A stretch of 24,643 nt of DNA from a virus (lineage: Duplodnaviria; Heunggongvirae; Uroviricota; Caudoviricetes). The first letter of the stretch is position 1. Every line of letters starts with the position of its first letter. The notes beneath the pieces are model-generated. The model searched no databases. It saw only the letters and a program-made list of their open reading frames with translations, and had not been told where the DNA came from. A program made the position numbers and the translations under genes. Positions 1 through 20,670 of this stretch are shown one piece after another. The DNA lies in the IMG/VR virus record IMGVR_UViG_2778261316_000001, positions 1 to 24,643 of that record; one strand, given 5' to 3'.

Positions 1-111
1 TCCACCTGCAAAATAAGTGGGTGCTTAAGTTACAGGATCCTGGATTCGGGACCAGACGGTACTCAGACGACGCTTACACTTCAGGAGGCATAACAAAAGG
101 AGTACAACGAT

Positions 112-867
112 ATGTCAACTCAACCCTTAATGAAGCATGAAGTAGTTCTTCCGGTCATCGTTGACGGCTATCACTGGGCCTGTAATCAGGACCGTATGTG
201 GAACCTGAACGAGCTACATAGGACGCTTGGGCTTCCACCTGCTAAGGAGCCGGGTCAGTGGCGTAGCTCTCTAAAAGACAAGCTCGTTAAAGATGCAAAT
301 TTGCATGTTTTAGCAGGACGCTCCGGTGGCACACTGGCAACTGAGGAAGCGGCTATTGCCTATGCGATGTGGGTCTCTGACGATTTCTACCTAAAGGTCA
401 TCCGTGCTTTCATCGCTTTACGTAACGACAAAGTGTCAGAAGCTAAGGCGCTGGCGCAGGACTCCAAGGAACTTAAGGGTCTCAAGCCTATAGCCCGTAA
501 CTGGCTGGAAAAGCTGGATAACCCGAAGCAGGGCCACACCCTGACAGAGTGTCTTAAGAATCTCGACTTCAGGCTAGGTACAAAGCTGGTATCAGCCAAG
601 GCTCTTAATGCCGTATTGAAGTCAGGGCGTATAGCTAATCCCTTCTATAGTCGCAAGCTGGACGGTCGAGGACAGCCTGTATTTGACATCTCGTCAGGTG
701 GCTGGATGACCAGCTTCAATCCGAAGGGTCTGGAGAACGGCTATTACCGTCTTCAGGATAACCACTACAACGGTCAGGAGGGGCTTAAGGTCCTCACCAA
801 GGGTTACGAGTGGCTTAAGTCCAACAAGGTCGAGCTGGTTCGTCTGTGCGCTAAGGGAGGACTCTAA
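112..867 (+). CDS. KilA-N-like domain protein (phage antirepressor/regulator-like), 251 aa
   Basis: ORF preceded by AGGAGG...AAGGAG; N-terminal ~100 aa resemble KilA-N/APSES DNA-binding domain pattern (e.g. EEAAIAYAMWVSDDFYLKVIRAF). Domain call from memory, not searched. Confidence 0.45.
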   Translation: MSTQPLMKHEVVLPVIVDGYHWACNQDRMWNLNELHRTLGLPPAKEPGQWRSSLKDKLVKDANLHVLAGRSGGTLATEEAAIAYAMWVSDDFYLKVIRAFIALRNDKVSEAKALAQDSKELKGLKPIARNWLEKLDNPKQGHTLTECLKNLDFRLGTKLVSAKALNAVLKSGRIANPFYSRKLDGRGQPVFDISSGGWMTSFNPKGLENGYYRLQDNHYNGQEGLKVLTKGYEWLKSNKVELVRLCAKGGL

Positions 868-868
868 G

Positions 869-1036
869 ATGATCGACCCGCGCACACCTGAGGGTCGCAT
901 GACTCTCCGTTACCGTGGCTACCGGACTGAAGTCATCCTGAAGGAGCTTGGTCTAGACCCGGAAGATGAGACCCGCCAGCACCAATCACGAGATGAGCTA
1001 ATAGCCCAACTGGTCGCTATGAAACTGTCTGCCTAA
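869..1036 (+). CDS. Small hypothetical phage protein, 55 aa (MIDPRTPEGRMTLRYRGYRTEVILKELGLDPEDETRQHQSRDELIAQLVAMKLSA)
   Basis: ATG 1 nt after the stop of the upstream ORF, suggesting translational coupling; not in ORF track because shorter than 60 aa. Confidence 0.3.
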   Translation: MIDPRTPEGRMTLRYRGYRTEVILKELGLDPEDETRQHQSRDELIAQLVAMKLSA

Positions 1037-1132
1037 TTTTAAAACCTTTTGAGATGACCGATGCGGGGAGACCCGTAGGCGCTACTGCGTCTGCGATACC
1101 GATAGTCTCAACTCTCAAGAGGAGTAATTACT

Positions 1133-1642
1133 ATGTCTAGCAAAGCTAGTGCGTTATTCAACAACAATGACTGGAAACTCCATGTCACCGACATCAATCT
1201 CTACGAAAACACTGTGAGTCTGGACGGTCAGTCCTACCCACTGTCCTTCGCTATTAAGACCCTGATTCCGGGCTACCTGTCAGGACTGCCTGCCACCAGC
1301 CGCGAGTCCATGGAATTACTGGAAGCTCTGGCTGAAGCTGGCGTGACCATTGGAAACTTCTTCAGCAATGACCTGATGACCGCCTACCAACGTCGCCAGC
1401 AGAACAAGCGAGCCGAGGCTGAGCGTATCGCTAAAGAGCAGCGCATTCAGGCTGAGCGTATGCGTGAAGAGAACATGACCGATGCAGAGTGGCAGAAAGA
1501 GCTACAGCGCCGCAAACAGGTCAAAGCTGAGCGCCGGACCTATGGTGAGAACCTCCGCAGTGCTACCCATTCCGCTGGTCGCTCCCGTGCCGCTATTGTC
1601 GCTGACATTGAGTCAGGCGGTAACTGGATGGACAGCCTCTAA
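1133..1642 (+). CDS. Hypothetical phage protein with charged coiled-coil segment (scaffold-like), 169 aa
   Basis: RBS AAGAGGAG upstream; central AEAERIAKEQRIQAERMREE...QKELQRRKQVKAERR heptad-like charged region. Function inferred only from composition and position. Confidence 0.4.
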   Translation: MSSKASALFNNNDWKLHVTDINLYENTVSLDGQSYPLSFAIKTLIPGYLSGLPATSRESMELLEALAEAGVTIGNFFSNDLMTAYQRRQQNKRAEAERIAKEQRIQAERMREENMTDAEWQKELQRRKQVKAERRTYGENLRSATHSAGRSRAAIVADIESGGNWMDSL

Positions 1643-1716
1643 GACAGACACACAAGTGGTCCTGACCTGATGTCGGGACCCACAGTATCTAAAACTAATT
1701 TAGGAGATTGATTATT

Positions 1717-2706
1717 ATGACCATGATTAAAGATAGCTATCAGTTCGGCATTGAGCCAGTACGTATCACCGACACCGACAACATTCAGGTAAACGAAGGT
1801 CTTCCGACTAACGCCGACCCTCAGGTCTATGCCTTCCAGTTAGCTAAGCTGGTGAAGACCATGCTCAATTCTGTACTTAAAGACGCTCAGGATAACATTC
1901 CGTTCCCTGTAGAAGTCCTGCCAGCTCGCAACAGCTTACCGACGCCAATCATTGCTCACACTCTGGCTGACCGCTCTGTGGTCGTTCCTGTCCGTGGTGG
2001 TAAACGACCTGAAGTCGTGACCGCTCCGTCTGGTACTGAAATCACCGTTGAGCCGATTGAGCAAGCTATCCTCGTGTCCCACCAGACCAAGCTATGGGAC
2101 GCTAAGTCATCCACCGGATTCACTCAGGGCACACTTCAGCAGGACGCTATGAACATCTGTGAGAATGTGGTCCGTACCATCAACGCTCGCATGGTCGACG
2201 TTCTGGAGTCCTCCAAACTGTTGAAGACCGTAGAGCTTCCTGTCCTGACTGGTAGCCTGACCGCTAAGGCAGACGATATCATGGACGCTCTGTATGACAA
2301 CACCGAGCCATCTTTCGGTTCTGAGGTTTCTGACTATGGCATTATCGCCCATGAGTCACACATCAAGGCTCTCTCTCGTCTGGCTGCTAAGCAGGGCTTC
2401 TCTGGTGAAGACGCTATCGTGGATATGCTGGGTACCGACATCGCGTATTACAACGGTGAGGACAAAGGTGTGTTCATGTTGGCTAAACGCTTCACGGCCC
2501 TGAGCTTCGGCTGCTTCCGTCACGACGGTGAGAATATTACGGTCGTCCTTTCACGTGATGGCGACTCTCAGTCCCACGACTTGGAAATCCTCGGTAAAGT
2601 GTTCGTTGTCGCTGAAGCTGCTACGACCGTCAAGATGGGCACTGGCTCAGCTACTGCCGTCCTGCCTGTAGTCAAACGCCTGAAGTTCACCAAGACCGAA
2701 GCGTAA
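1717..2706 (+). CDS. Hypothetical phage structural protein, possible major capsid protein, about 329 aa
   Basis: TAGGAG 10 nt upstream of ATG at 1717 (track start 1708 is TTG); T/V/A-rich, low K/R composition and size typical of capsid proteins; follows the coiled-coil ORF. Product is a guess. Confidence 0.4.
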   Translation: MTMIKDSYQFGIEPVRITDTDNIQVNEGLPTNADPQVYAFQLAKLVKTMLNSVLKDAQDNIPFPVEVLPARNSLPTPIIAHTLADRSVVVPVRGGKRPEVVTAPSGTEITVEPIEQAILVSHQTKLWDAKSSTGFTQGTLQQDAMNICENVVRTINARMVDVLESSKLLKTVELPVLTGSLTAKADDIMDALYDNTEPSFGSEVSDYGIIAHESHIKALSRLAAKQGFSGEDAIVDMLGTDIAYYNGEDKGVFMLAKRFTALSFGCFRHDGENITVVLSRDGDSQSHDLEILGKVFVVAEAATTVKMGTGSATAVLPVVKRLKFTKTEA

Positions 2707-2711
2707 GACCA

Positions 2712-2951
2712 ATGGGTAAGAGCATTAGTAAAGGCTTCAGGTCCATCGCCAAGGGCCTGACAGGTGGTGCTGGGACTCAAGGTGGGGCTTCGGTCCCGCC
2801 TCCTGTAGCTCCTCCTGTAGCTCCTCCAGATGACGCTCAGCAAGCTGTAGTCGATACCCAAGGTCAGGAGACCGAGGGAGGTAAGACCATGAGCAGAGGT
2901 AAGTCTGGACTGAATATCAGCAGGACTTCAGGTGGTGGGCTATCACTGTGA
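2712..2951 (+). CDS. Small Gly/Pro-rich hypothetical protein, 79 aa (contains PPPVAPPVAPP)
   Basis: ORF starts 6 nt after the upstream stop, same strand as the block. Confidence 0.3.
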   Translation: MGKSISKGFRSIAKGLTGGAGTQGGASVPPPVAPPVAPPDDAQQAVVDTQGQETEGGKTMSRGKSGLNISRTSGGGLSL

Positions 2952-2961
2952 TTAACTAACT

Positions 2962-2987
2962 ATGGTCTGGACCAATGGTCTGGACCT
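2962..2987. repeat. Tandem direct repeat ATGGTCTGGACC x2 (1-nt spacer)
   Basis: Read directly: ctATGGTCTGGACCaATGGTCTGGACCtg; related copies (AAGTCCAGACC, GGTCCTGACC, AATGACACAAGTCTGG, AATGACACAAGGTCTTG) lie in 3280-3375. Confidence 0.5.
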
Positions 2988-3027
2988 GTTGTTAATGTAA
3001 TAATATAACATAACAGATAGGGGCTTT

Positions 3028-3183
3028 ATGTCTATGACTTCCGCAGACCTGAAGTCCCTCCTGACTCTGGTCTATAAACTCGTGTTCCTCTCTGTGGGTC
3101 TCTACATGGTCCTCTCTGGTCGACTCGGTGTGGATGTGTTCGACACTCTGTCTAAGGCTGTGGGTGGACTTCTAGGTCCTTAG
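3028..3183 (+). CDS. Small predicted membrane protein, 51 aa (MSMTSADLKSLLTLVYKLVFLSVGLYMVLSGRLGVDVFDTLSKAVGGLLGP)
   Basis: GGGG upstream of ATG; one hydrophobic helix; last ORF before the junction region. Confidence 0.3.
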   Translation: MSMTSADLKSLLTLVYKLVFLSVGLYMVLSGRLGVDVFDTLSKAVGGLLGP

Positions 3184-3376
3184 GTTTGGACTCACAGTGG
3201 GACCGATGGTTTCTGACAGAAAAATGTGAATGACCATCTAATACATTAAGCCAGCAGACTTCCCCCCATAGGCCCACCTCAAGTCCAGACCGAGGCCACC
3301 GGGGGTCCTGACCAGCCGTCTAGACATCCAGTCTAATGACACAAGTCTGGCACAAAGAATGACACAAGGTCTTGAC

Positions 3377-4834
3377 TCAATGCAGGACCTCAGGCCTACT
3401 AAGGGTCCGCTTCAAGTCCTTGTAGTTCCAGATGAACTTAATGGGCACATCCAGTTTATCTTTGCCGCGGACGCCGTCGCGGATTGCCGTCATTTGCGGA
3501 CCATGATCGATAGCATCTGTCCAGCTGAAGCAGGAGATTGACGTTTTGACCGGATTATCCAGCACCGGCAGGCGTTCTATGGTAATGGTATAGGTCGATT
3601 CACGCGCGCCACTATTTCCGCCGCTGATGCCGACATTGCCCGTCAAAATAGGTAACATAGCAATAGCGCGTGCAGTCAGTTCGCCGTTTGCCTGGCGTTG
3701 TGGCCCCCAGCCCTGGCAGATATAAGCGGGTTTTGCTGTGCCAATTTCACGCGCCAGTTTGATGATACGGTCCTCCGGGATACCGGTAATTTGCGAAGCC
3801 CACTGCGGCGTTTTCGCTGTTTTATCGTCACCTTCACCAAGAATATAGGCTTTATAGTGACCATTTTTGGGTGCATCTGCGGGTAAGGTTTTTTCGTCAT
3901 AGCCGACGCAGTATTTATCGAGAAAAGATTGATCAACGAGATTTTCGTTAATCAATACCCAGGCAATACCCGCAACCAGCGCGGCATCGGTGCCCGGGCG
4001 AATAGGGAGCCATTCGTCTTCACGACCGGCAGCCGTATCGGTATATCGCGGATCGATAACAATCATTTTGGCGTTCGATTTCTCGCGCGCTTTTTCAAGA
4101 AGATAAGTGATGCCACCACCGCTCATGCGGGTTTCTGCCGGGTTGTTACCAAACATCACGACCAGCTTGCTGTTTTCAATATCCGTGGTGCTGTTGCCAT
4201 CATTACTGCCGTAGGTGTAGGGCATGGCACAGGAAATTTGCGCAGTGCTGTAGGAGCCATACTGGTTGAGTGAACCGCCGTAGCAGTTCATCAGGCGTTT
4301 GACCGCCGAGGCTGATGGCGAAGAGCGGGTCATATTGCCGCCAACGATCCCCGAAGAGTACTGAATATATACAGCCTCATTGCCATATTGTTCGACGGTT
4401 TTCTTCAGGCTACTGGCGATAGTATCCAGGGCTTCATCCCAGCTAATCCGTTCGAATTTGCCTTCGCCGCGTTTGCCCACGCGTTTCATTGGGTAATTCA
4501 AGCGATCGGGATGATTAATACGCCGGCGGATGGAGCGACCGCGCAAACAGGCGCGTACCTGATGGTTGCCGTACTCATCGCTGCCGGTATTGTCAGTTTC
4601 CACCCAGGTCACTTCATTATCTTTAACATGTAGACGAAGTGCACAGCGGCTACCACAGTTGACGGAACAGGCACCCCAGACCACTTTTTCGCGGGCCTGT
4701 TGTACCGATGCTGCTGCATTGCGCAGGGTAAACGGCAAAGAAAAACCGCCTGCAGCCAGCGCCAGAGAACCTATCGCGGTAGATTTAACGAGTGTTCTGC
4801 GGCTGATGCCCACCATTCGTTCATTTTTGGACAT
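3377..4834 (-). pseudogene. ynfE: ynfE truncated: N-terminal ~471 codons of DMSO-reductase-family molybdoenzyme catalytic subunit, Tat signal present
   Basis: Begins MSKNERMVGISRRTLVKSTAIGSLALAAG (twin-arginine motif) with CxxCxxxC cluster; homology to YnfE/DmsA ends after ...VPIKFIWNY (about 3422); last 14 codons (KDLKRTLSRPEVLH) are read-through into foreign DNA. Full-length protein is about 800 aa. Confidence 0.8.
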
Positions 4835-5338: not shown

Positions 5339-5445
5339 CATAAGCTCCTTACGCGAAGATAACTTCTTTAAGCATAGCATTTAACGTGTAAAGTACTGTA
5401 TTTGCTACTATGATTGAGAATCATCTCTACTCTCTGGTGACTGTT

Positions 5446-6156
5446 GTGAAATACAAATTACTACCATGCTTACTCGCGATATTCCTCACAGGATGTGACC
5501 GCACAGAGGTAACACTTTCATTTACCCCTGAGATGGCCAGTTTCTCTAATGAATTCGATTTTGATCCGCTGCGTGGTCCGGTAAAAGATTTCACTCAGAC
5601 ATTAATGGATGAGCAAGGTGAAGTGACGAAACGTGTTTCTGGGACTTTGTCGGAAGAAGGCTGTTTTGATTCACTCGAATTACTGGATCTGGAAAATAAT
5701 ACCGTGGTCGCTCTGGTACTGGACGCCAATTATTACCGTGATGCCGAGACGCTGGAGAAGAGAGTACGTTTACAGGGAAAATGCCAGCTAGCAGAATTAC
5801 CTTCTGCCGGGGTGAGTTGGGAAACCGATGATAATGGCTTCGTGATTAAAGCCAGCAGCAAACAAATGCAGATGGAATATCGCTATGATGATCAGGGTTA
5901 TCCGCTGGGTAAAACCACGAAAAGTAACGACAAAACATTATCTGTCAGCGCCACGCCATCAACGGATCCGATCAAAAAATTAGATTACACAGCGGTTACT
6001 TTACTGAATAATCAACGGGTTGGTAATGTAAAACAGAGCTGTGAATATGACAGTCACGCTAATCCGGTGGACTGTCAGCTAATCATTGTTGATGAAGGAG
6101 TAAAACCCGCCGTCGAACGGGTTTACACCATTAAAAATACGATCGATTATTATTAA
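5446..6156 (+). CDS. ynfC: YnfC, UPF0257 lipoprotein, 236 aa
   Basis: (V)KYKLLPCLLAIFLTGC lipobox; GTG start at 5446 gives the K-12 length; conserved position between ynfD and speG. Confidence 0.85.
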   Translation: MKYKLLPCLLAIFLTGCDRTEVTLSFTPEMASFSNEFDFDPLRGPVKDFTQTLMDEQGEVTKRVSGTLSEEGCFDSLELLDLENNTVVALVLDANYYRDAETLEKRVRLQGKCQLAELPSAGVSWETDDNGFVIKASSKQMQMEYRYDDQGYPLGKTTKSNDKTLSVSATPSTDPIKKLDYTAVTLLNNQRVGNVKQSCEYDSHANPVDCQLIIVDEGVKPAVERVYTIKNTIDYY

Positions 6157-6158
6157 TG

Positions 6159-6719
6159 CTATTGTGCGGTCGGCTTCAGGAGAGTCTGACCCGGTGTTTT
6201 GTGCTCTGCCAGATACTGATGCTGGAATATACACATGCGAATGGCATTACGATATTGACCATTAATAAAGAACTCGTGCATCAATTCACCTTCAACCGAA
6301 AAGCCAAGCTTGCGGTAAATGTGAATCGCTTTTTCATTCTCTTTATCAACGATCAGATACAGCTTATAGAGATTGAGAACGGTAAAGCCATAGTCCATTG
6401 CTAATTTGGCGGCACGGGTTGCCAGACCTTTCCCCTGATACTCCGGGGAGATAATTATCTGAAATTCTGCGCGGCGATGAACATGGTTAATTTCCACCAG
6501 CTCCACCAGACCGGCTTTTTCGCCGTCACATTCCACCACAAAGCGCCGTTCGCTCTGATCGTGAATATGCTTATCATACAGATCAGAGAGTTCAACAAAG
6601 GCTTCGTAGGGTTCCTCAAACCAGTAACGCATCACACTGGCGTTATTGTCGAGTTGATGTACATAGCGTAAATCTTCACGCTCCAGCGGGCGTAGCTTAA
6701 CACTGTGGGCGCTTGGCAT
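6159..6719 (-). CDS. speG: Spermidine N1-acetyltransferase SpeG, 186 aa
   Basis: Full-length match to recalled SpeG ([26 protein letters not shown]...), GNAT fold. Confidence 0.92.
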
Positions 6720-6753
6720 AACGTGTCCTTACATTCCTTAAATCAATAACAGG

Positions 6754-7095
6754 TTAGGGGGTAATAACGCGGCCAGTTCGACGGTCCAGGCAGCGCAAAG
6801 TATTGGGCTCCCAGTAGGCATTGATGTTGGCGCTTTGCTCACATTTATCGCGGTTATCAAAAGCGGCGTCGGCTTTATCCCACTCTTTTTCAGTGCGTTT
6901 ATTCACTTTCTGGCGCAGATTGCGCGTGTCATTCCATTGCTCTTTTTCCATAGCGGCGTGCTGGCGGCTTTGTGCACTGTCGCCAGACTCAATCACCAGT
7001 TTGTTAGTTTCGGCATGAACAGTTGTGCTCAATGCCAGTGCGCAAGGCAGCAGAATAGCGAGCAGGCCGATTCGTTTGCTGAGAGTGATTTTCAT
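6754..7095 (-). CDS. ynfB: YnfB, UPF0482 secreted protein, 113 aa
   Basis: [28 protein letters not shown] signal peptide; conserved neighbour of speG. Confidence 0.85.
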
Positions 7096-7229
7096 AATTC
7101 ATTCCCTGTATGAATGATTAAAGGTGATTCTACACCATCCACTGCGGACGCAAAACGTACCAGGAGGGTGTTTATATTGATGATATTATGTCGCCCTATA
7201 ACTATACATGATGTCAATAAGAGACAAAG

Positions 7230-7556
7230 ATGATTAAAACAACGTTACTATTTTTTGCTACTGCGCTGTGTGAAATTATTGGATGCTTTCTGCCCTGGTT
7301 GTGGTTAAAACGAAACGCCAGTATCTGGCTGTTGCTTCCGGCGGGGATTTCACTGGCGCTGTTTGTCTGGTTGTTAACGTTGCATCCAGCGGCGAGTGGG
7401 CGTGTTTACGCGGCTTATGGTGGCGTTTATGTCTGCACGGCGTTGATGTGGTTGCGCGTTGTGGATGGCGTGAAACTGACTCTTTATGACTGGACGGGTG
7501 CGTTGATTGCGCTTTGCGGCATGTTGATCATTGTTGCGGGCTGGGGGCGCACGTAG
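7230..7556 (+). CDS. ynfA: YnfA, UPF0060 small inner-membrane protein, 108 aa
   Basis: Four hydrophobic helices; [26 protein letters not shown] matches recalled YnfA. Confidence 0.88.
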
Positions 7557-7761
7557 GAACATAAATCCATTTTATCAATAAGATAAGAGGAAGTGTCAGC
7601 TGACAAAAGGTATTCTATTTCATCTTTTGTCAACCATTCACAGCGCAAATATACGCCTTTTTTTGTGATCACTCCGGCTTTTTTCGATCTTTATACTTGT
7701 ATGGTAGTAGCTCAGTTGCGTAGATTTCATGCATCACGACAAGCGATGCAAGGAATCGAAC

Positions 7762-8976
7762 ATGAAGATCGTAAAGGCTGAAGTTTTTGTTACCTGTCCG
7801 GGGCGTAATTTCGTCACATTAAAAATCACCACTGAGGACGGTATTACGGGCCTTGGGGATGCCACCCTCAATGGACGTGAGCTTTCCGTGGCCTCTTATT
7901 TGCAGGATCACCTTTGTCCGCAGCTTATTGGTCGCGATGCGCACCGTATCGAAGATATCTGGCAGTTTTTCTATAAAGGTGCTTACTGGCGTCGCGGTCC
8001 GGTTACGATGTCGGCCATTTCAGCGGTTGATATGGCGCTGTGGGATATTAAAGCCAAAGCTGCCAACATGCCGCTTTACCAGTTACTCGGCGGCGCGTCT
8101 CGTGAAGGGGTGATGGTTTATTGCCATACCACCGGTCACAGTATTGATGAAGCTCTGGATGATTATGCCCGTCATCAAGAGCTTGGATTCAAAGCCATCC
8201 GCGTGCAGTGCGGAATCCCTGGTATGAAAACCACCTACGGCATGTCGAAAGGTAAAGGTCTGGCTTATGAACCCGCAACCAAAGGACAGTGGCCGGAAGA
8301 GCAGCTGTGGTCGACGGAGAAATACCTCGATTTCATGCCGAAATTGTTTGACGCGGTACGTAACAAGTTTGGTTTTAATGAACATTTGCTGCATGACATG
8401 CACCATCGCTTAACGCCTATTGAAGCGGCGCGCTTTGGTAAAAGCATTGAAGATTATCGCATGTTCTGGATGGAAGACCCGACGCCTGCGGAAAACCAGG
8501 AATGCTTCCGTCTCATTCGCCAACATACCGTCACACCCATCGCAGTGGGTGAAGTCTTCAACAGCATCTGGGACTGCAAACAACTGATTGAAGAGCAACT
8601 CATCGATTATATCCGCACCACGCTGACCCATGCAGGCGGAATTACCGGTATGCGCCGGATTGCCGATTTTGCTTCGCTGTATCAGGTACGTACTGGCTCA
8701 CACGGTCCTTCCGATTTGTCACCAGTCTGCATGGCTGCGGCGCTGCACTTTGATCTGTGGGTCCCCAATTTCGGTGTCCAGGAATACATGGGTTATTCCG
8801 AACAAATGCTCGAAGTCTTCCCGCACAACTGGACTTTCGATAACGGCTATATGCATCCGGGAGACAAACCGGGTCTTGGTATCGAATTCGATGAAAAGCT
8901 GGCGGCGAAATATCCCTATGAACCTGCTTATCTACCAGTCGCACGTCTGGAAGATGGCACGCTGTGGAACTGGTAA
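7762..8976 (+). CDS. rspA: RspA, starvation-sensing protein, mannonate dehydratase-like enolase superfamily, 404 aa
   Basis: [40 protein letters not shown]... typical enolase-superfamily N-terminus; start at internal Met of track ORF; operon with rspB. Confidence 0.9.
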
Positions 8977-10194: not shown

Positions 10195-11475
10195 TTAATT
10201 TTTCATTGCTTCGTTATGGGGCATGGTTGGGGCAAACTCGCTTAACTGTGTATTTAACAAAGCTACCTGTGCATTATTGTTTTCAGACATCCATTTTCCG
10301 TATACCTGAAATACCATTTGCGCATCTGCATGGCCCATCTGGTTTGCTATAAATGCCGGGTTAGCACCAGCTGTCAGCGACCAGCAGGCATAAGTATGTC
10401 TCGACTGATATGATTTTCGATGGCGGAGTCCGGCACGTTTTATCGCTGCGTCCCACATCTGCCTTATTGAGTCAACGGTAAAATGGTCACCATAATTTTT
10501 TACTCTCGCTGACACTTCAGGTTGAAAAACAAAGGTGCATTTTTGTTTTTCTGTTCTGCCATACTCTCTGAGGTGAACATCAATGATATGCTCTTTGCTC
10601 AGTCTCGTTAATGTCATCTGACTCCGGAGAGCGTCGATTGCTGGCTTAATAAGATGAATGACCCGATTGGTTCCCGCCTGTGTTTTTGGTACCGTGAAAC
10701 GGTCTTTTGCTAAATTTCTCCTGATCATCATTGTTCCATTTTTCAGATCTATGTCCTCCCATCCAAGTGCACACAGCTCACCAGGGCGAACGCCAGTATA
10801 AACAGAAACACACCATAAATTTTTGGCTTGCTGATTTCTGCACGCATCGATAAGACGGATGAATTCCTCCCGCGAAAGAGGATCCGGAATGGTTCTTGAT
10901 TCCTTTAATGGCGAGATCCCCTTAAACGGGTTATCTGCCAAGTAACCGTTATCAACACCAAACTGGAACACGGCGTTAAGATTTGTCATGTAATTATTTA
11001 CAGTTACAGCCGATCTCCCTGGTTGTGTAACAATATAGTTACTTTTGGGGATCTGGTATCCAGTCAGTAGCTCTTTACGAACCTCCAGTAATTTTTCTTT
11101 ATTAATCGATGAGGCAAGATTTTTTTCACCGATTATGCTCAGGATATTTTTGATGACGGCACGGTATGTGTTGAGTGATGTTTTTGCGACTTCAGTTTCT
11201 TTCAGTGCCAGAAATTTTTCAGCCAGTTCTTTTATGGTTAAATCTTGTCGGGCCTCACCAAATTTTTCCAGATTGCGTGAGGAGGGAAACTGTTTTGCAT
11301 AGTCGAAAACACCAGTTTTTATTGCGTAACAAACAGAGGCGCGTAGTTCACCTGCAACGCGCCTGTTTTTTGCTGTGTCAGGAACCCCCAGATTTTCCCT
11401 GACTCTTACGCCTTTATAAACAAACCAGATACGTAATTTCCCTCCATGGTTTTCCACGCCTGTCGGATATTTCAT
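10195..11475 (-). CDS. int: Phage tyrosine integrase (lambda/Rac IntR-like), about 426 aa
   Basis: N-terminus MKYPTGVENHGGKLRIWFVYKGVRVRE resembles IntR-type integrases; C-terminal catalytic region with HxxR and terminal Tyr context (SYQSRHTYACW...HADAQMVFQVYGKW); adjacent to the ydfJ junction. Confidence 0.85.
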   Translation of the reverse strand: MKYPTGVENHGGKLRIWFVYKGVRVRENLGVPDTAKNRRVAGELRASVCYAIKTGVFDYAKQFPSSRNLEKFGEARQDLTIKELAEKFLALKETEVAKTSLNTYRAVIKNILSIIGEKNLASSINKEKLLEVRKELLTGYQIPKSNYIVTQPGRSAVTVNNYMTNLNAVFQFGVDNGYLADNPFKGISPLKESRTIPDPLSREEFIRLIDACRNQQAKNLWCVSVYTGVRPGELCALGWEDIDLKNGTMMIRRNLAKDRFTVPKTQAGTNRVIHLIKPAIDALRSQMTLTRLSKEHIIDVHLREYGRTEKQKCTFVFQPEVSARVKNYGDHFTVDSIRQMWDAAIKRAGLRHRKSYQSRHTYACWSLTAGANPAFIANQMGHADAQMVFQVYGKWMSENNNAQVALLNTQLSEFAPTMPHNEAMKN

Positions 11476-11509
11476 TTCAACTTCTCTCATTAGTTAGTGT
11501 GGCTTTTAG

Positions 11510-11761
11510 TCAAGTAAGATGACGTCTTGGTCTCGCTGATGCCTGGCGCTCAATCCAGCGATCAATTTCTTCCAGGTTGTAAAAGCATGGGCTGTTATCC
11601 CATGGCATACCGTCATGAGCGACATGCTTATATTCCCTTCCTTCCATAAACGATTTTTCCCGGGCCTTTTTTAACGTACCTTTTTTTATTCCTTTCAGCG
11701 CAATTAACTGCTCTTCGGATACCCATTTGCCGGGAGAGACAATCATGATTACTTCGCTCAT
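11510..11761 (-). CDS. xis: Putative excisionase (YdaQ/Xis-like), 83 aa
   Basis: Small basic protein immediately upstream of int on the same strand; resembles recalled Rac YdaQ. Confidence 0.6.
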   Translation of the reverse strand: MSEVIMIVSPGKWVSEEQLIALKGIKKGTLKKAREKSFMEGREYKHVAHDGMPWDNSPCFYNLEEIDRWIERQASARPRRHLT

Positions 11762-11833
11762 CGATTTCTTTATCTCTTACATTAGACGAGCGCCGGTTGC
11801 AGAATACCAGTCACAACCGGCGACAGTTGAACA

Positions 11834-14305
11834 TTAAGAATCAGCCTGACTCGGGATCAGTTTTTGCCAGATAACTGAAACGTATTTTGCCTGGTAACGG
11901 GCGTCATCAAGTGCATTATGGCGCTCACCTTCGAATGGAATAGCCGTTCTGGCATCGAAGTCTATGGCTTTCCCCAGCTCAACGATTGTGCGTACATCGC
12001 GATCGTTGTAGTAACGCCACGGGCAGGGGATCCCCTGCCGTTCGTATGAACGGCGCAAAATCGTGTTGTCGAAGTTGGCTCCATTTCCCCAAACCTGAAC
12101 AAAAAATTCACCGGAGTTTTCGTCGATAAATTCCCGCAATTGTAACAGTGCATCATCTAACGGGATTTCATCGGTCATAATGGCAGATTGCGCTTCGCGT
12201 GATTGCTTAAGCCACCATTTAATGGTGTCCCGATCAATGACTCCGCCAGCAGTTTCCAGATCGATAGTCTTACTAAATTCCGGTCCCATATCTCCGGTTT
12301 GCGGATCGAAAAATATTGCACCTATTGAGATGATCGGGGCATCAGGATTTTTTCCCATGGTTTCAAGGTCGATCATTAGATGGTCACACGTCCTGCTGGT
12401 GGATGTGATTTCGTGATGACCGTTCACCTTAATTGAGTGATCTGCCGTCTCGCCAGTTTCATTATCGCTATTGTGATGCTGATTGCCGCCAGTGTTCTCC
12501 TTGTGTGGATGTTCAGCGCCTTCCATTTCCTCCAGATCATCTTCCTGAACTTCAACCTGATACTCTTCATCGAATGTTTCCTGGTATGTTGCGTCGCCCA
12601 TCACCGCGCCACAATCAGGGCAGTTGCCGCCGCCGGTCTGACCGCAGGCGGTGCAGACTTTTTCCACTTCCAGTTGCGCCACTGGTTCAGGCTGTTTCGT
12701 TTCTGGCTCGTTTTGTAACGCATTTGTGCTGTTTTGTTCCGCTTTTTGGTAGTTCCGTTCCGATTCATGCTGGTTCTGGTTCACAGAATCGCGGGTCTGG
12801 ATCCCCTTAACCCATTTCGGATCATTCGGGTCACTAATCCCTTCAACAAATTCACCACGTGATGCAGCAAGCAACTTATCGGCGTCAGGCTGGCTGATAT
12901 TGGCTGCCTGCATAATTTTGTTTACTTCGTCAGCGGTAACTTTTATCGGCTCTGGTTGTTCTGAATCTTCAGCGGTATCTACATTTTGCGGTAAGCCCGT
13001 GTATGTGCCATTTTTTCGGGCAAAATATTCTTCTTTTGTGATTTCAGTGGCGCCAGCAGCCAGTGCCTTATCCAGACCAGAAAGTTTGTTTGCGCGACCG
13101 TATTTTTCTCCGTCCTTATCTGCGAAGAGGAAATAGAACGGCCCCTCACGCTCTACAGATGGTTCAGCTTCCGGCGCGGTTTCATTTTTTGGGATATCAG
13201 ATACCTCAGTTTCCACTGCATCAGTTTGTGTTTCTGATGACTGGAGAACATCAACAGTGCCCAGGTCTGTTTCTTCATTCTCAAACACGCCCTTTGTCGT
13301 CAGGTATTCGCAGATATATTTGTTCAGTGCTATGGGATCTTTGTGAATGTCGATCGGACGCTCACGGACAAGGCCAAAAATAGTCTGGCGGTCGTAGCGA
13401 AGGGCATCAGGCTGTTTGCGCATTGATGCCGAGATACGCTTCCAGTCTTCGCGGTCGTTGTCGATAACTTCTTTTTTTGCCCAGCGATGGATGCTGCCGT
13501 CAATGTTTCCGGCATCCACATCACCAGGCCAGAGAGCGTAGGCCAGTTCGTCATCCAGTGTTTTCCATGTCTGCTTGTATTCGCGATGAATGGCAGCAAT
13601 GACCGGGCTGATTTTTCCTGTTGAATTTTCAGTGTACTGTTGATTGGTTCTGGCGCGGGCGAGATCAACAACAGACGTGTATTTTCCGGTTTCCTTGCGT
13701 TCACCTTCGCGACGTTTTTTCCAGATGCGCATCTCTGCCTGAATTTCGGGCCATTTAGCACCAGGAATACATTTATGCTTAACCCACCCAATGGCGTGCA
13801 ACTTAAGCTCCGGATACATGGCGTTAACTTCTGGCATTTTCATCAACGCTTCAACGATATGTCCGTCGAATGTTGCCATGTCTTCCTGCAACAATTCCTG
13901 TGCGCTAATAACCATATCAACGGTGATGTTTTCACATGTGTCGAACTTAACCATGACAGCGTTCTGTACTTCAGGGGCCAGCTTGTCAAAAGTGACGTTC
14001 ATCGGATCGGATTCAGTCTCAACCGGGACAAAAGAAGCAGACTCCTCATCCCAGCGGTTTTCCTGCATATATTCAGCATCCCATGAATCGAGGGCAGGGC
14101 GGGGTATGCCAGGTTTATCCTCGCAGACAATAAATTTATAAGCGCAGTCCTGAGCAGCCGGATAATGTTCCAGGAACTGCCAGTGAAATTTTGCTCGAGC
14201 ACGGCGTTCGTCGCCAGCTTCAATGGCTGTGGCTACAGCCACAGCGCCTTCTTCCCTTGTTGCCAGTTCGTCAGGAATAGCGGCGCAAATAAAGACTTTA
14301 CTCAT
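11834..14305 (-). CDS. RecE-like exonuclease VIII family protein with C-terminal DnaQ-like (DEDDh) 3'-5' exonuclease domain and internal Cys4 zinc ribbon, 823 aa
   Basis: Middle segment DADKLLAASRGEFVEGISDPNDPKWVKGIQTRD matches a recalled RecE segment; C-terminus has MIDLETMG, WGNGANFDN and HNALDDARY (Exo I/II/III motifs); CTACGQTGGGNCPDCG zinc ribbon. Confidence 0.7.
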   Translation of the reverse strand: MSKVFICAAIPDELATREEGAVAVATAIEAGDERRARAKFHWQFLEHYPAAQDCAYKFIVCEDKPGIPRPALDSWDAEYMQENRWDEESASFVPVETESDPMNVTFDKLAPEVQNAVMVKFDTCENITVDMVISAQELLQEDMATFDGHIVEALMKMPEVNAMYPELKLHAIGWVKHKCIPGAKWPEIQAEMRIWKKRREGERKETGKYTSVVDLARARTNQQYTENSTGKISPVIAAIHREYKQTWKTLDDELAYALWPGDVDAGNIDGSIHRWAKKEVIDNDREDWKRISASMRKQPDALRYDRQTIFGLVRERPIDIHKDPIALNKYICEYLTTKGVFENEETDLGTVDVLQSSETQTDAVETEVSDIPKNETAPEAEPSVEREGPFYFLFADKDGEKYGRANKLSGLDKALAAGATEITKEEYFARKNGTYTGLPQNVDTAEDSEQPEPIKVTADEVNKIMQAANISQPDADKLLAASRGEFVEGISDPNDPKWVKGIQTRDSVNQNQHESERNYQKAEQNSTNALQNEPETKQPEPVAQLEVEKVCTACGQTGGGNCPDCGAVMGDATYQETFDEEYQVEVQEDDLEEMEGAEHPHKENTGGNQHHNSDNETGETADHSIKVNGHHEITSTSRTCDHLMIDLETMGKNPDAPIISIGAIFFDPQTGDMGPEFSKTIDLETAGGVIDRDTIKWWLKQSREAQSAIMTDEIPLDDALLQLREFIDENSGEFFVQVWGNGANFDNTILRRSYERQGIPCPWRYYNDRDVRTIVELGKAIDFDARTAIPFEGERHNALDDARYQAKYVSVIWQKLIPSQADS

Positions 14306-14398
14306 TTTGTTTTAACCTCATGACAGATTTAAGGATGAACAAATCCCTGCCATTGCTGGCATATAAGAATGAAACCGGATATTTATTACGGAACTGTT

Positions 14399-14590
14399 TT
14401 AAAGACCTGCCGGGATTTCGATATTATCCTGGTGAATAACTTTATCGACCGGGTAACAGTTACCGGGAATTTTCTGTTCGGTTGCTGCAGTCATACACTC
14501 CTGCATTGTCCTGTGCACACTGACTGCAATATCAACTGGCTCTCCGGAAACAAGAAAAACTGTCAGAACAAGCACAAATGCTGAATTCAT
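14399..14590 (-). CDS. ydfD: YdfD-like small prophage protein, 63 aa
   Basis: MNSAFVLVLTVFLVSGEPVDIAVSV... one hydrophobic helix; start overlaps the dicB stop (ATGA); position after dicB as in Qin. Confidence 0.7.
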   Translation of the reverse strand: MNSAFVLVLTVFLVSGEPVDIAVSVHRTMQECMTAATEQKIPGNCYPVDKVIHQDNIEIPAGL

Positions 14591-14775
14591 TGTGCACATC
14601 CTTTTGGCATCAGACGTAAACGAGCCAGCATTGAAACAATGCATATTTTATTTAATAGCTCCCGTTCTTGTTTTCTCTTGTTAATGGCATCTTCAGTAAA
14701 TACTGGGTTACTGATAGTGACACCAATTTCAAAACAACCTTCAGACGTATTAACGTTTGGTAATAACGTTTTCAT
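14587..14775 (-). CDS. dicB: Cell-division inhibitor DicB, 62 aa
   Basis: MKTLLPNVNTSEGCFEIGVTISNPVFTEDAINKRKQERELLNKICIVSMLARLRLMPKGCAQ matches recalled DicB; lies just downstream of dicF on the same strand. Confidence 0.85.
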   Translation of the reverse strand: MKTLLPNVNTSEGCFEIGVTISNPVFTEDAINKRKQERELLNKICIVSMLARLRLMPKGCAQ

Positions 14776-14949
14776 TATCGCGTCCTCAACAATGAATTTT
14801 GTGATGCAGTGCCTGGTGCCTCCAGGTGACGTTAACCAGTTAACAATTAACGCCGGATACAGAGAATCCACCCATAACACTGTTTTTGGTTTTAACTGTT
14901 CCGCGTGCGCTCAGCCGCATTCACCACATCACAAAATTCACTTTAAAAA

Positions 14950-15002
14950 GGGCGGCAGAGCAGTCACGGAGTAAAACTGATACCGCCAAACGTCACCAGA
15001 AA
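14950..15002 (-). ncRNA. dicF: DicF small RNA (53 nt) with intrinsic terminator
   Basis: Reverse complement reads TTTCTGGTGACGTTTGGCGGTATCAGTTTTACTCCGTGACTGCTCTGCCGCCC followed by TTTTT, identical to the recalled K-12 DicF sequence. Confidence 0.9.
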
Positions 15003-15342
15003 ATTGATAACAGAGGGCGTTGCAGCGGGGTTGTCACTTAAGCGTATGGTCAACCTGACAACCCGGTGTCCTCAACGGGGAAGGAATAACCCCGCCATAC
15101 TTACCGCCGCGCCATTTCGCGGGTTGCCACAACCGGAAGCGCACGGTCGACGAAAATTTAACGACAGGCTATCTATGAACCAGCTACCTCGCCGTGCGCT
15201 TTCGCGTTATGGTCTGACTTTTCAGGGAAATATCCTTTCAGTAAACTGTCAGTGCCGGATGCTCACCCGTGTCCGGCGCACGCACTCCACCTCACCCGTG
15301 GAGAACTCCTTAATTACTAACCTTAGCTTTGTTGATTAGCTA

Positions 15343-15561
15343 CTAACGCGGGTATGTAATCATTCTGGCAATGCTTAATGCCGCTGCTTTTTCCAGATTG
15401 GTGATATCCTGCTCCAGAGCGGACAGATTTTCAGCCTGCTTAGCCCTGGTTTCATTGGCCCATTTCAAATCCTGCGCTGCATTAATTTTCTGGCGCATCC
15501 ACTCATAAAGTTCATCATCGGTATAGTCTGGCGCGATGATGACGGGTTCTCGTTTCTGCAT
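15343..15561 (-). CDS. ydfC: YdfC-like prophage protein, 72 aa
   Basis: Size and position (between ydfB and dicF) match the Qin dicB operon; sequence MQKREPVIIAPDYTDDELYEWMRQ... resembles recalled YdfC. Confidence 0.7.
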   Translation of the reverse strand: MQKREPVIIAPDYTDDELYEWMRQKINAAQDLKWANETRAKQAENLSALEQDITNLEKAAALSIARMITYPR

Positions 15562-15590
15562 ACTGATTCCTCGCGGTGCTGTTTCGCTTA

Positions 15591-15719
15591 TCAGCCGTTA
15601 GATTTTGCCGAACTGGAAAGCGCCTGTTTAAATTCGTTGAAGCTGAGAGCTTCTTCGCCGTCGGCAAGACCTTCCAAGTATTCTTCGTAAGCCTTTTCCA
15701 TGATTGTGTCGAAATCCAT
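15591..15719 (-). CDS. ydfB: YdfB-like prophage protein, 42 aa (MDFDTIMEKAYEEYLEGLADGEEALSFNEFKQALSSSAKSNG)
   Basis: Found by manual translation (below track cutoff); start is 2 nt after the ydfA stop; size matches K-12 YdfB. Confidence 0.6.
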   Translation of the reverse strand: MDFDTIMEKAYEEYLEGLADGEEALSFNEFKQALSSSAKSNG

Positions 15720-15720
15720 A

Positions 15721-15876
15721 TCACTCACCTGGGTTTCTTTCCAGCCAGCGACGGGCACCATTTTCGGTTTTAAACGTTTTGCTTTTGGTATACGTCATCG
15801 CGGTGAACGTACCGTCCTGGTTGGGGAACACGCCACATACCAGAGATTCGCTGTTGCCAAGATCGATAGTATCCAT
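15721..15876 (-). CDS. ydfA: YdfA-like prophage protein (DUF1391), 51 aa
   Basis: MDTIDLGNSESLVCGVFPNQDGTFTAMTYTKSKTFKTENGARRWLERNPGE; first gene downstream of the dicB-operon promoter. Confidence 0.7.
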   Translation of the reverse strand: MDTIDLGNSESLVCGVFPNQDGTFTAMTYTKSKTFKTENGARRWLERNPGE

Positions 15877-15990
15877 GCTGACCTCATTTCCCCTTAACGC
15901 CGGGGTAGCGGAACTGTTTGCTGAGAACACCGTGCGGTGTCTTGATGGAAAATAATTTAGAATAACCTAACATGAGAGGCAAGTGTTTTT

Positions 15991-16008
15991 TGTTAGATTG
16001 ATCTAACA
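15991..16008. promoter_or_regulatory. Palindrome TGTTAGA-TTGA-TCTAACA in the dicB-operon promoter region (candidate DicA operator)
   Basis: Perfect 7-bp inverted repeat between the dicA 3' end and the ydfA start; the same half-sites recur at 16502-16519. Confidence 0.5.
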
Positions 16009-16044
16009 AAAAGGGTGGGCGCAACTAATCACTTGAAAAGAATG

Positions 16045-16452
16045 TTATTTTATTGATTTATTTTTACGCGCTTTAAGCATTTCTTCGAAGAGTTTGTTGA
16101 AGTTTTCTACTCTTGCGCGCATTTCAGACAGCAAGGCTTCCTGCTCGGAAGATGGAAGAGCATCGAATAATTCGATCAATTCTTTGTGGTTGGGAGTTAG
16201 CTCTGTTTCCACATGAAGTTCTTGTGCAGGCACTGGTGCCTTGTCTTCGTCACCAAACATTAGCCATGTAGGTGAGCACTTCAGAGCATCCGCTAAAGCA
16301 AACAATCGTTTTCCGACTGGCTGGGTTTCGTCTCTTTCCCATTGTGAAATTGTGACGTGAGCAACTCCAGCGAGGCGCGCGGCTTCTCGTTGTGTTAAGC
16401 GTAATTCTTTTCGTCGCGCCAGAACTCGCTGGCCCAGGGTTCTTGTATCCAT
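16045..16452 (-). CDS. dicA: DicA, HTH-XRE repressor (cI-like), 135 aa
   Basis: N-terminal HTH (LRLTQREAARLAGVAHVTISQWERDE); C-terminal part (FALADALKCSPTWLMFGDEDK...EMRARVENFNKLFEEMLKARK) matches recalled DicA; divergent from dicC. Confidence 0.85.
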   Translation of the reverse strand: MDTRTLGQRVLARRKELRLTQREAARLAGVAHVTISQWERDETQPVGKRLFALADALKCSPTWLMFGDEDKAPVPAQELHVETELTPNHKELIELFDALPSSEQEALLSEMRARVENFNKLFEEMLKARKNKSIK

Positions 16453-16501
16453 AGTTAGGTAATTCTAATTTTTCTTGACTTAGGTATCCCGCGCACAATA
16501 A

Positions 16502-16519
16502 TGTTAGAAAAGTCTAACA
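16502..16519. promoter_or_regulatory. Palindrome TGTTAGA-AAAG-TCTAACA in the dicA-dicC intergenic region (candidate operator)
   Basis: Perfect inverted repeat just upstream of the dicC RBS (GAGGGGGG) and about 50 bp from the dicA start; a TTGACT -35-like hexamer lies upstream. Confidence 0.5.
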
Positions 16520-16533
16520 AGAGGGGGGCTTTG

Positions 16534-16761
16534 ATGCTTAAAGTTGACGCAATTACTTTTTTTGGCAGCAAAACAAAGCTTGCCAATGCCGCAGGAGTGA
16601 GGCTGGCAAGTGTTGCTGCTTGGGGGATACTGGTTCCTGAAGGTCGCGCGATGCGTCTACAGGAGGCATCTGGCGGGGAGCTTCAGTATGATCCCAAAGT
16701 TTATGATGAATATCGTAAGACGAAGCGGGCGGGGCGGTTGAACAATGAAAATCACTCCTGA
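16534..16761 (+). CDS. dicC: DicC, Cro-like regulator, 75 aa
   Basis: MLKVDAITFFGSKTKLANAAGVRLASVAAW...; start at internal Met after the RBS (the track start at 16501 would include the operator). Confidence 0.8.
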   Translation: MLKVDAITFFGSKTKLANAAGVRLASVAAWGILVPEGRAMRLQEASGGELQYDPKVYDEYRKTKRAGRLNNENHS

Positions 16762-17266
16762 ACAGGCTCGTGAGGCTCTGGATGCCTGGATATGTCGACC
16801 AGGAATGACACAGGAGCAGGCGACGATATTAATCACTGAAGCATTCTGGGCTTTGAAAGAGCGCCCGAACATCGATGTTCAGCGTGTCACAGATGAAGGT
16901 GGCGCGGTTGATCAGCGAGCGCTTGGTGTTAATCGAGTGAAGATATTCGAACGCTGGAAGGCTATCGACACCAGGGATAAGCGTGAAAAGTTCACGGCGC
17001 TAGTGCCTGCGATTATGGAGGCTATCCGGATTAGTGATTTCAGGTTGTATCGTGAAATTACTGACGGAAAAAGCATCACGTGCATGATCGCCGGGTTAAA
17101 CAAAGAATATGGCGATGTGGTGGAGTCCGGACTGCTTTTTGCTGATCCTGCCGTAGTGGATCGTGAAACTGACGAACTTATAGAAAAAGCAATTGCTTTC
17201 AAGCTTGCGTATCGACAGCAATACCAACAAAAAGCTGGATGGAATTATGAGCCTTCTTTTTGCTGA
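16745..17266 (+). CDS. Hypothetical prophage protein, 173 aa, in the cII/YdaT position
   Basis: ORF overlapping the dicC end and the replication gene start; no motif recognised. Confidence 0.5.
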   Translation: MKITPEQAREALDAWICRPGMTQEQATILITEAFWALKERPNIDVQRVTDEGGAVDQRALGVNRVKIFERWKAIDTRDKREKFTALVPAIMEAIRISDFRLYREITDGKSITCMIAGLNKEYGDVVESGLLFADPAVVDRETDELIEKAIAFKLAYRQQYQQKAGWNYEPSFC

Positions 17267-18190: not shown

Positions 18191-18230
18191 GTGTTGATTT
18201 CAGGTCATGAGGTAATTTTAAGGGGGACTT

Positions 18231-19139: not shown

Positions 19140-19616
19140 ATTCGTAAGGTTACAGATACGTATATCTGAATAATTAAATTCAGTTCTGTAAATAAAACTT
19201 AATCCTTAACCGGATGGATTTCTGCACCCTCAGAACATCAGGAGGCCGCCCGAAAGGGCGGTAGTGAAATGCGAAAGTTCAAAATTATTATTGAAACGGA
19301 AATAGCTGGTGGAGATTTTGAGGATGTATTCGAAGTGGACGATGACGCAACACCTGATGAAATTCATGACGGAGCATAAGAAATTTTCTTTAACTACTGC
19401 AATTACTCATACCACGAAATAAAAGACGATGAGGAAGAACAAAGTGGCTGATTTTTGTTCAGCTAAATATAACATCAGTTTTGAAGAGCGGGATGAACTA
19501 TTAATGGACTATGGTGAATTACGCGGTGGAAGTGCTGCTGATGTCGAATCCTAGCGTGATGACTATGAAGCGGGAAAAACTCCGGTCGAAGCATATTGTG
19601 ATGAGTGGGGCGATGA

Positions 19617-20643: not shown

Positions 20644-20670
20644 CCCCAGACAATTCTCTGGGGGATTTTT
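20644..20670 (+). terminator. Intrinsic terminator-like hairpin (CCCCAG...CTGGGG + TTTTT) immediately upstream of the transposase start
   Basis: 6-bp GC-rich stem, 8-nt loop, then GATTTTT; ends 1 nt before the ATG at 20672. Confidence 0.4.

Follow-up and report, generated by a model that had tools for sequence, protein, structure and literature searches.

What interrupts ynfE in this stretch of DNA, and what has become of the other half of the gene? The window, a stretch of 24,643 nucleotides (nt) from the IMG/VR virus record IMGVR_UViG_2778261316_000001, carries only the 5′ part of this selenate-reductase gene, which runs into unrelated DNA. We found that this DNA is the right part of an integrated island. 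The island family probably represents satellites of T7-group lytic phages, here of Kayfunavirus (K1F-like), and the copy studied is integrated at a 17-bp core in ynfE. We also lean, though only a little, towards a fuller picture: an undescribed and widespread satellite family of Enterobacteriaceae that would be switched on by the helper RNA polymerase, packaged by the helper terminase through a mimicked genome end, rebuild the head with its own capsid protein and carry anti-T7 genes.

The features at the interrupted gene are as follows.

3377–4834, minus strand: 5′ fragment of ynfE, an open reading frame (ORF) of 485 amino acids (aa) made of ynfE codons 1–471 (4834–3422), 14 element-derived codons and a stop.
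3422–3438: attR, the right copy of the 17-bp attachment (att) core GTAGTTCCAGATGAACT, equal to ynfE nt 1397–1413 and encoding KFIWNY (codons 466–471).
3337–3368, plus strand: putative arm-type integrase sites of attR, read off the sequence as TGACACAAG / TGGCACAAAG repeats (3337–3345, 3348–3357 and 3360–3368).

By BLASTN, nt 1–1413 of K-12 ynfE match window positions 4834–3422 with 99.9% identity, and left of 3422 there is no match to K-12 ynfE. In the ORF list the protein reads ...VPIKFIWNY, then KDLKRTLSRPEVLH and a stop. An earlier note on this DNA had ended the ynfE match after VPIKFIWNY, at about 3422, followed by 14 unrelated codons; this was exact, the break falling after codon 471. The twin-arginine (Tat) signal and the Fe-S cysteine cluster that it called intact are indeed present in the ORF, as SRRTLVK and CSVNCGSRC. 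All junction and module counts given here refer to a panel of 5,426 complete E. coli genomes. A 2-kb query over the junction (window 2400–4400) was at least 80% covered in 129 of them. Because the same junction occurs in these genomes, it is no assembly artefact, and the misassembly that the earlier note had allowed for at this point is ruled out.

Two complete genomes with this junction were examined in detail, L001 (strain MSB1_9D, NZ_LR890349) and L002. One insertion sequence (IS) aside, L002 is 100% identical to window 78–3500. In both genomes ynfE nt 1–1413 lie to the right of the insert, and nt 1397–2427 are found undamaged some 6.7 kb further to the left; the 17-bp overlap is present twice. 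The 3′ half of ynfE was therefore neither deleted nor, as had been supposed, replaced by phage-like genes. The displaced half is invisible in the window because the window stops inside the element, and only the right core copy (3422–3438) falls within it. The core is a direct repeat in L001 (14286 and 21023), is a single copy in K-12 ynfE, and is absent from the paralogue ynfF even when 4 mismatches are allowed. The left core of L002 (5291–5307) differs by one base from the right copy, GTAGTTCCAGATGGACT versus ...GAACT; the two copies of L001 are identical.

In L001 and L002 the left core is followed, some 60 nt further into the island and outside the window, by the start of a tyrosine integrase gene (526–534 aa). 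Its product matches the Pfam Phage_integrase domain (7e-14) and phrog_1 (1e-39). The element thus has an att repeat at both ends and an integrase gene beside one of them. The TGACACAAG / TGGCACAAAG motif pair is also found near the opposite island end (L001 14456–14475) and at the right end of ynfE-type islands from other hosts (L009, L016 and L047). The ynfE insertion is certainly a site-specific integration that split the gene and lost nothing. Because the integration is clean, with a duplicated 17-bp core, precise excision would be expected to restore ynfE. The island measures about 6.5 kb once IS elements are subtracted, and the window covers only its right 3.3 kb or so. Of the foreign phage-like segment of about 3.4 kb described earlier, the phage ancestry stands; the extent does not, the segment being the right half of an integrase-bearing island of about 6.5 kb. 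Its separation from the Qin-like prophage was correctly drawn, as the lambdoid prophage begins at its own integrase (10195–11490).

Full-length YnfE cannot be made from the interrupted gene. According to the domain test of the TIGER survey, the split lies in the middle of the Molybdopterin domain (PMC7192596). In related genomes ynfF, ynfG, ynfH and dmsD are intact beyond the integrase end of the island, and at least 6.5 kb of oppositely oriented island DNA separates the ynfE promoter from ynfFGH-dmsD. It is plausible that expression of ynfFGH-dmsD is lost and that the whole operon is inactivated. The TIGER survey lists integrase-bearing ynfE islands of 7–8 kb, Eco892.7.ynfE in E. coli and Sfl13.8.ynfE in Shigella (Mageeney et al., NAR 2020, PMC7192596). 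They show the same Molybdopterin-domain disruption of ynfE and are almost certainly the element seen here. In contrast to the present analysis, the survey (PMC7192596) gives position and target only; a capsid gene, phage promoters or a genome-end copy were not found in it. The ynfE island is already known as a catalogue entry; its gene content appears to be undescribed.

What links the island to T7-group phages? The first link is a set of promoters, all of them outside the window, past the IS66 end, in the left half of complete copies. Each of the ten islands scanned has one or two promoter-type sequences such as gaccCTAAACTATCACTATAGGGAGAcc. They all lie on the gene strand, past the integrase gene and ahead of the conserved block; the chance expectation is 0.2 per 42 kb. 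The site at L002 7827 has zero mismatches to TATCACTATAGGGAGA, and 25 nt are identical to the K1F promoter that precedes the K1F capsid gene. Kayfunavirus F has eight promoters of the same type. Elsewhere, the exact 19-mer occurs in about 20 IMG/VR viral contigs of 39–41 kb, one of which, L021, is Kayfunavirus vB_EcoP_F. The Kluyvera island carries the variant AAGGTACACTATAGGGAGA, whose only exact match is in Citrobacter phage CR8. The L009 island carries a variant with the CCCTC block of the T3 promoter consensus, and this variant also occurs in contigs of about 39.8 kb. The variant of L017 and L018 had no exact match in IMG/VR. Sigma-70 promoters showed no excess in the island.

Other sequence features were noted around these promoters. 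The ynfE-type islands and Kayfunavirus share a hairpin, GGAGGGTGATAATAATCATAATCCCTCC (score 39 versus 15.8 ± 2.1), found at L002 7027–7054, L001 16054, L047 1784, K1F 38985–39008 and Kayfunavirus F 6965–6992. Its loop is GATAA in the islands and GATAT in the phages, and the K1F stem is shorter with a compensating change. In Kayfunavirus the hairpin sits in the interval that separates the last phage promoter from gene 19.5. The region from the integrase gene to the first phage-type promoter contains a unit of about 83 bp repeated three times in tandem (L002 7150–7360; L001 16138–16385), each copy with an AT-rich stretch (CTCTTTATATAT) plus CTTGACATNCNGTCC...CCTGTGAGTCAC. This array might serve as an origin, as a set of early promoters or as binding sites. 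A CAC/CAT run (caccaccaccaccaccaccaccatcatc) lies at L002 8320–8350, in an unannotated stretch of about 650 nt that reaches from the second phage-type promoter to the KilA-N gene.

The second link lies inside the window, close to attR.

3201–3297, plus strand: putative packaging and cleavage site that copies the concatemer junction and left end of T7-group genomes (multiple alignment).

In the multiple alignment this block is collinear over about 100 nt with the junctions of K1F, CR8 and T7 and with seven other islands. Its K1F counterpart consists of the last 35 nt or so of the unique right end and the first 60 nt or so of the 178-bp terminal repeat. The equivalent of the phage end falls between 3236 and 3237, after ...GAATGACCA and before TCTAATAC..., and TCCCCCCATAGGCCC follows at 3261–3275. 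The K1F junction reads GACGATGAGTTTTGGACCAAAAGTTTGAGACCACA up to the end and TCTCACAG...CAAGTCTCCCCATAGGCCC...AAGTCCAGACCAAAGGCCC beyond it; the window copy reads GACCGATGGTTTCTGACAGAAAAATGTGAATGACCA and then TCTAATAC...GACTTCCCCCCATAGGCCC...AAGTCCAGACCGAGGCC. Local alignment scores were compared with shuffled sequences:

Window against K1F: score 44, shuffle null 15.8 ± 2.3, reached by 0 of 1000.
L005 against K1F: score 55, shuffle null about 15 ± 2, reached by 0 of 1000.
K1F against T7, two genuine phages: score 37, shuffle null about 15 ± 2, reached by 0 of 1000.
L016 and L017 against CR8: score 22, shuffle null about 15.6 ± 2.3, reached by 23 and 14 of 1000, respectively.

Across the K1F genome the best match of the block is the terminal repeat (nt 24–54). 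The block is present in 8 of 8 aligned islands, regardless of integrase type. At the level of sequence, then, the island has two cis signals matched to a helper: promoters identical to those of Kayfunavirus and a copy of the concatemer junction. Since it carries this copy, phage terminase could cut and package island DNA.

The third link is formed by the proteins encoded next to this site.

1708–2706 or 1717–2706, plus strand: HK97-fold major capsid (shell) protein, 329–332 aa.
2712–2951, plus strand: homologue of gp7.3, 79 aa (phrog_1320, 1.2e-11, full length).

The 332-aa protein has no sequence-level family in PDB, GenBank phages (tblastn), Pfam, PHROGs or NCBIfam. An exhaustive HMMER search found 65 relatives, reaching down to about 25% identity, and a profile of 36 relatives gave only Ig-like add-on domains in single members. 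With 15 close homologues AlphaFold gave a pLDDT of 34, and the distant HMMER relatives were needed for a confident model (pLDDT 81, pTM 0.76). In this predicted model the protein has the HK97 fold, with N-arm, E-loop hairpin, spine helix, P domain and A domain. The ratio of nonsynonymous to synonymous substitution rates (dN/dS) of its gene is 0.09–0.16, that is, purifying selection. No sequence similarity to Kayfunavirus gp10 was detectable. For an encapsulin-type cargo, no enzyme-like neighbour was recognised in general Pfam and NCBIfam scans, no search for cargo-loading peptides having been made.

The 79-aa protein is 39% identical to Kayfunavirus gp7.3 and shares its MGKSISK N-terminus and SRTSGGGxSx C-terminus. 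Pfam VirionAssem_T7 (PF11653) scores 19.0 bits, under the gathering threshold of 25; despite this score, the sequence comparison supports homology to T7-group gp7.3. In the T7 group gp7.3 is a virion protein required for adsorption and tail assembly. By tblastn neither the gp7.3-like nor the DUF6971-like protein had a phage match, and low-complexity filtering may explain this for the former. The gp7.3 homologue is an accessory gene of ynfE-type E. coli islands and is absent from tRNA-Gly-type islands.

The remaining island features in the window are listed below; all island genes are on the plus strand, opposite to ynfE.

1–77: end of an IS66-family element (77 bp), 34 nt ahead of the KilA-N start codon.
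112–867, plus strand: KilA-N domain protein, 251 aa (Pfam KilA-N 5e-6, above cutoff; phrog_129 transcriptional regulator 4e-14).
869–1036, plus strand: conserved 55-aa protein, part of the family backbone (tblastn).
1133–1642, plus strand: 169-aa DUF6971 protein (RefSeq name), with a charged, probably coiled C-terminal half.
2964–2986, plus strand: terminator-like hairpin with T-rich tail, downstream of the capsid and gp7.3 genes (consensus scan).
3028–3183, plus strand: 51-aa hydrophobic protein, probably single-pass membrane, 82% identical in Kluyvera L016.

The window and the otherwise identical L002 part exactly at 77/78. The 77-mer has 730 matches in 527 genomes, on chromosomes and plasmids, beside IS66 tnpA/tnpB/tnpC. 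This particular IS66 insertion is in none of the complete E. coli genomes searched, the best coverage of window 1–500 being 85%. The IS66 end probably cuts off the visible genes of the island from their phage-type promoters. The KilA-N gene occupies an exchangeable regulator slot, which in other copies (L001, L005 and L006) holds a Rha-family gene or an unrelated gene of 161–166 aa. In all family members examined, tblastn places the 55-aa gene (52–96% identity) directly upstream of the DUF6971-like gene. The DUF6971-like gene is always immediately upstream of the capsid gene, in a conserved pairing, and has a dN/dS of 0.08–0.11. Its product had no above-threshold match in Pfam, NCBIfam or PDB, and from its position we infer a putative scaffold.

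The last gene before the junction copy also has a counterpart in position. T7, K1F and CR8 have a gene 19.5 of about 50 aa in the same place, last before the genome end, and that of CR8 is annotated with one transmembrane helix. The 51-aa gene may be called a positional analogue of gene 19.5, a resemblance of position and not demonstrated homology. The hairpin behind the capsid gene is in the same place as T-phi after gene 10 in the T7 annotation; in tRNA-Gly-type islands a hairpin and T-run stand directly 3′ of the capsid gene. Eight island proteins were scanned with Pfam, PHROGs and NCBIfam, six encoded in the window and two from L002. The capsid protein and the gp7.3 homologue were the only structural proteins among them, and no portal, terminase, tail or lysis gene was recognised. 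Like satellites in general, the island is without most virion, packaging and lysis genes.

How far does this island extend beyond one gene in E. coli? The DUF6971-capsid module is present in 312 of the 5,426 genomes (about 6%), in up to two places per genome. The members examined share one order: integrase, variable slot, regulator (KilA-N, Rha or other), 55-aa protein, DUF6971-like protein, capsid protein and small membrane gene. Two integrase types, 31% identical to each other, serve this cargo. One targets ynfE, at the same codons, in E. coli, Kluyvera intermedia (L016) and the L009 host, and these integrases are 86–95% identical. The other, known from E. coli, Shigella, Enterobacter and Buttiauxella, targets tRNA-Gly(CCC). 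This tRNA-Gly-type integrase goes, in Shimwellia (L017) and Buttiauxella gaviniae (L018), with a capsid clade about 45% identical to the E. coli one; a tRNA-Gly gene beside the island was detected in L018 and not in L017. Because Kluyvera pairs the ynfE-type integrase with that same capsid clade, integrase and capsid types have been exchanged. Distant capsid relatives likewise lie in small integrase islands, and the family seems to reach far beyond the islands of E. coli. One such relative, L051 (a 12-kb Logan ERR5982074 contig), has integrase, Phage_T7_GP04-domain, ParE-like, HNH and DUF6971-like genes. Its capsid protein is 527 aa long, with a C-terminal Ig-like domain suggested by an alignment scan. 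L051 has four promoters of yet another variant, of type ttaattcctacCACTATAGGGAGAc.

Some tRNA-Gly islands carry the defence gene PD-T7-4 in the variable slot beside the integrase. PD-T7-4 was experimentally selected for anti-T7 defence and was noted to "often overlap an integrase gene". A DUF4145 gene overlaps the end of the integrase gene in L005 (2664–3323; O26:H11 strain FWSEC0001) and L004 (1765–2418), and that of L005 is a PD-T7-4 match in PADLOC (1e-102). In ynfE-type islands the same slot encodes an uncharacterised 122-aa protein (phrog_23123) between two phage-type promoters, which may be an unrecognised defence or counter-defence gene. Several other copies are disrupted by IS elements: ISSen4 lies within the L002 capsid gene (10322–11442), ISCro1 lies upstream of the L005 DUF6971-like gene (5355–7970), and IS421 lies near the junction in further copies.

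From these features we propose the following course. The island would stay silent until a Kayfunavirus-type phage infects the cell. The phage RNA polymerase would then read the island promoters that are identical to phage late promoters, and predicted transcripts would start at the G of ...CACTATAGGGAGA, in dependence on this polymerase. The products would be the regulator, the 55-aa protein, the putative scaffold, the HK97-fold capsid protein, the gp7.3 homologue and the small membrane protein. After excision and replication, island DNA might be packaged into capsids built from, or modified by, the island capsid protein. Alternatively, concatemers of roughly six units might fill helper-sized heads: six times 6.5–6.7 kb makes 39–40 kb, one Kayfunavirus genome, an arithmetic that is suggestive only. 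A satellite is the simplest account of the promoters, genome-end mimic, lone capsid gene, gp7.3 homologue of some members, anti-T7 cargo of others and architecture kept across genera, taken together.

Several observations weigh against a satellite. After the integration step, its support is based on sequence and models. The phage-type promoters are not visible in the window, as they lie beyond the IS66 end, and the integrase gene is upstream of them. The island has no recognised excisionase, replication initiator, portal, protease or terminase, and these functions would therefore have to be supplied by the helper. The similarity of CR8-type islands to the CR8 junction is weak (z about 2.8). 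IS insertions in many copies, IS66 here, fit decay as well as mobility. Searches of IMG/VR and of JGI metagenome contigs gave no hit to the circular (attP) junction. Close homologues of the capsid gene matched only two IMG/VR contigs, both with IMG isolate-genome numbers and with the island still flanked by ynfE. The element-sized Logan contigs L004 and L047 were likewise no circles, and their ends are flanking host DNA.

The failure to find a free or encapsidated form, in the attP search of IMG/VR and JGI metagenomes, would suit an element that is never packaged. Such an island would serve mainly as anti-phage defence, with the phage promoters as an infection sensor and the capsid-like protein and gp7.3 homologue as decoys that poison assembly. 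We consider this unlikely, though it is the alternative that survives best. Expression tied to phage promoters suits a sensor, and PD-T7-4, an anti-T7 gene, stands beside the integrase in sister islands. However, a defence element has no evident need for a genome-end copy of about 100 nt conserved in every member, nor for an integrase and intact att sites. Interference with the helper is also a trait of known satellites, so that defence overlaps with the satellite interpretation and does not exclude it.

The T7-group features of the island, namely its promoters, junction, gene 19.5-like position and gp7.3 homologue, could instead be functionless fossils in a decayed remnant of a temperate T7-like prophage. 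Frequent IS insertions would agree with this. We regard it as quite improbable, because the same architecture of about 6.5 kb is kept with 31%-identical integrases, two targets, 45%-identical capsid clades and several genera, and the capsid and DUF6971-like genes are under purifying selection. Nor does the capsid protein show detectable sequence similarity to Kayfunavirus gp10. The promoter variants track different phages, which points to continuing co-adaptation.

Recurrence at the same codon in independent hosts raises another possibility. The TIGER survey proposed ynfE as a candidate for "regulated gene integrity" (PMC7192596), by which host-conditioned excision would restore ynfE as a regulatory switch. 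The pattern of insertion that such a switch calls for is present: one integrase clade has broken up the Molybdopterin domain in several independent integrations and left it unrestored. We think a switch very improbable all the same. A sister lineage with the same cargo targets tRNA-Gly and inactivates no gene, so the cargo is not about ynfE. A simpler role for the conserved core that encodes KFIWNY is that of a reliable landing site. The paralogue ynfF is intact, and no host-responsive regulator was recognised. Finally, a chimeric contig or junction artefact, which the IS end at the window start, a typical contig-break signature, might suggest, has a negligible probability against a junction identical in 129 complete genomes.

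If the island is a satellite, does it belong to a class already described? The capsid-forming phage-inducible chromosomal islands (cf-PICIs, e.g. EcCI2) are 10–15 kb long, encode a complete set of head and packaging functions (portal, protease, small terminase and connectors) and use temperate helpers. The present island differs from them in having a capsid protein and a possible scaffold only, in 6.5 kb, with signals that point to lytic T7-group phages. We rejected membership in the cf-PICIs, as the capsid protein alone was found and no portal, protease, small terminase or connectors. By analogy with cf-PICIs, the island capsid protein might assemble into small heads; like Ccm of SaPIbov5, it might instead alter the heads of the helper. 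SaPIbov5 Ccm belongs to a Gram-positive host and cos-type siphophages. Host and helper type thus differ from those of the island, and there is no sequence similarity. P4-like satellites and classical PICIs were also rejected, since no primase or replicase, AlpA-type regulator, Sid/Psu/Delta or master repressor was recognised in Pfam, PHROGs and NCBIfam scans.

[quoted passage not shown] We rejected them too, because the island has a capsid gene and Enterobacteriaceae hosts and no Fis or AlpA was detected. PMC10803314 describes PICMIs as Vibrionaceae elements of reduced gene content, packaged as concatemers and without capsid-remodelling genes. PICMIs in Vibrionaceae and PICI-like elements (PLEs) in Vibrio cholerae are, like the proposed satellite, small integrated satellites of virulent phages. 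We know of no report that PICMIs or PLEs use promoters of a helper single-subunit RNA polymerase. Plasmids with a T7 promoter-type origin and a concatemer junction were reportedly packaged into T7 particles by Chung and Hinkle in 1990. Those plasmids were engineered, whereas the island carries both kinds of signal naturally. A full-text literature search, which covers few subscription journals, turned up neither an account of such an element nor one of any T7-like phage's satellite, and prior publication is possible.

The rest of the window holds a separate element. A lambdoid (Qin-like) prophage lies beside rspB at 10195–24643, with its integrase at 10195–11490 on the minus strand. A large ORF at 11834–14305 (minus strand) has an exonuclease gene as its counterpart in related genomes. 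An ORF with helix-turn-helix and rve_3 domains (20672–22012), a transposase, interrupts the prophage; near this position MSB1_9D has a retron Ec67-type reverse transcriptase.

A split ynfE alone is ordinary, and the importance of this locus lies in what the island carries. Few phages are as well studied as T7 and its relatives, some of which, K1F for example, are candidates for phage therapy. If the satellite interpretation is true, the classic T7 model phages would have their first known satellite system, and whether strictly lytic model coliphages have satellites would become directly testable. The islands would then influence the host range of phages and how phage therapy turns out, and would offer a compact natural case of infection-triggered gene expression. 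They could also explain the origin of orphan defence genes such as PD-T7-4.

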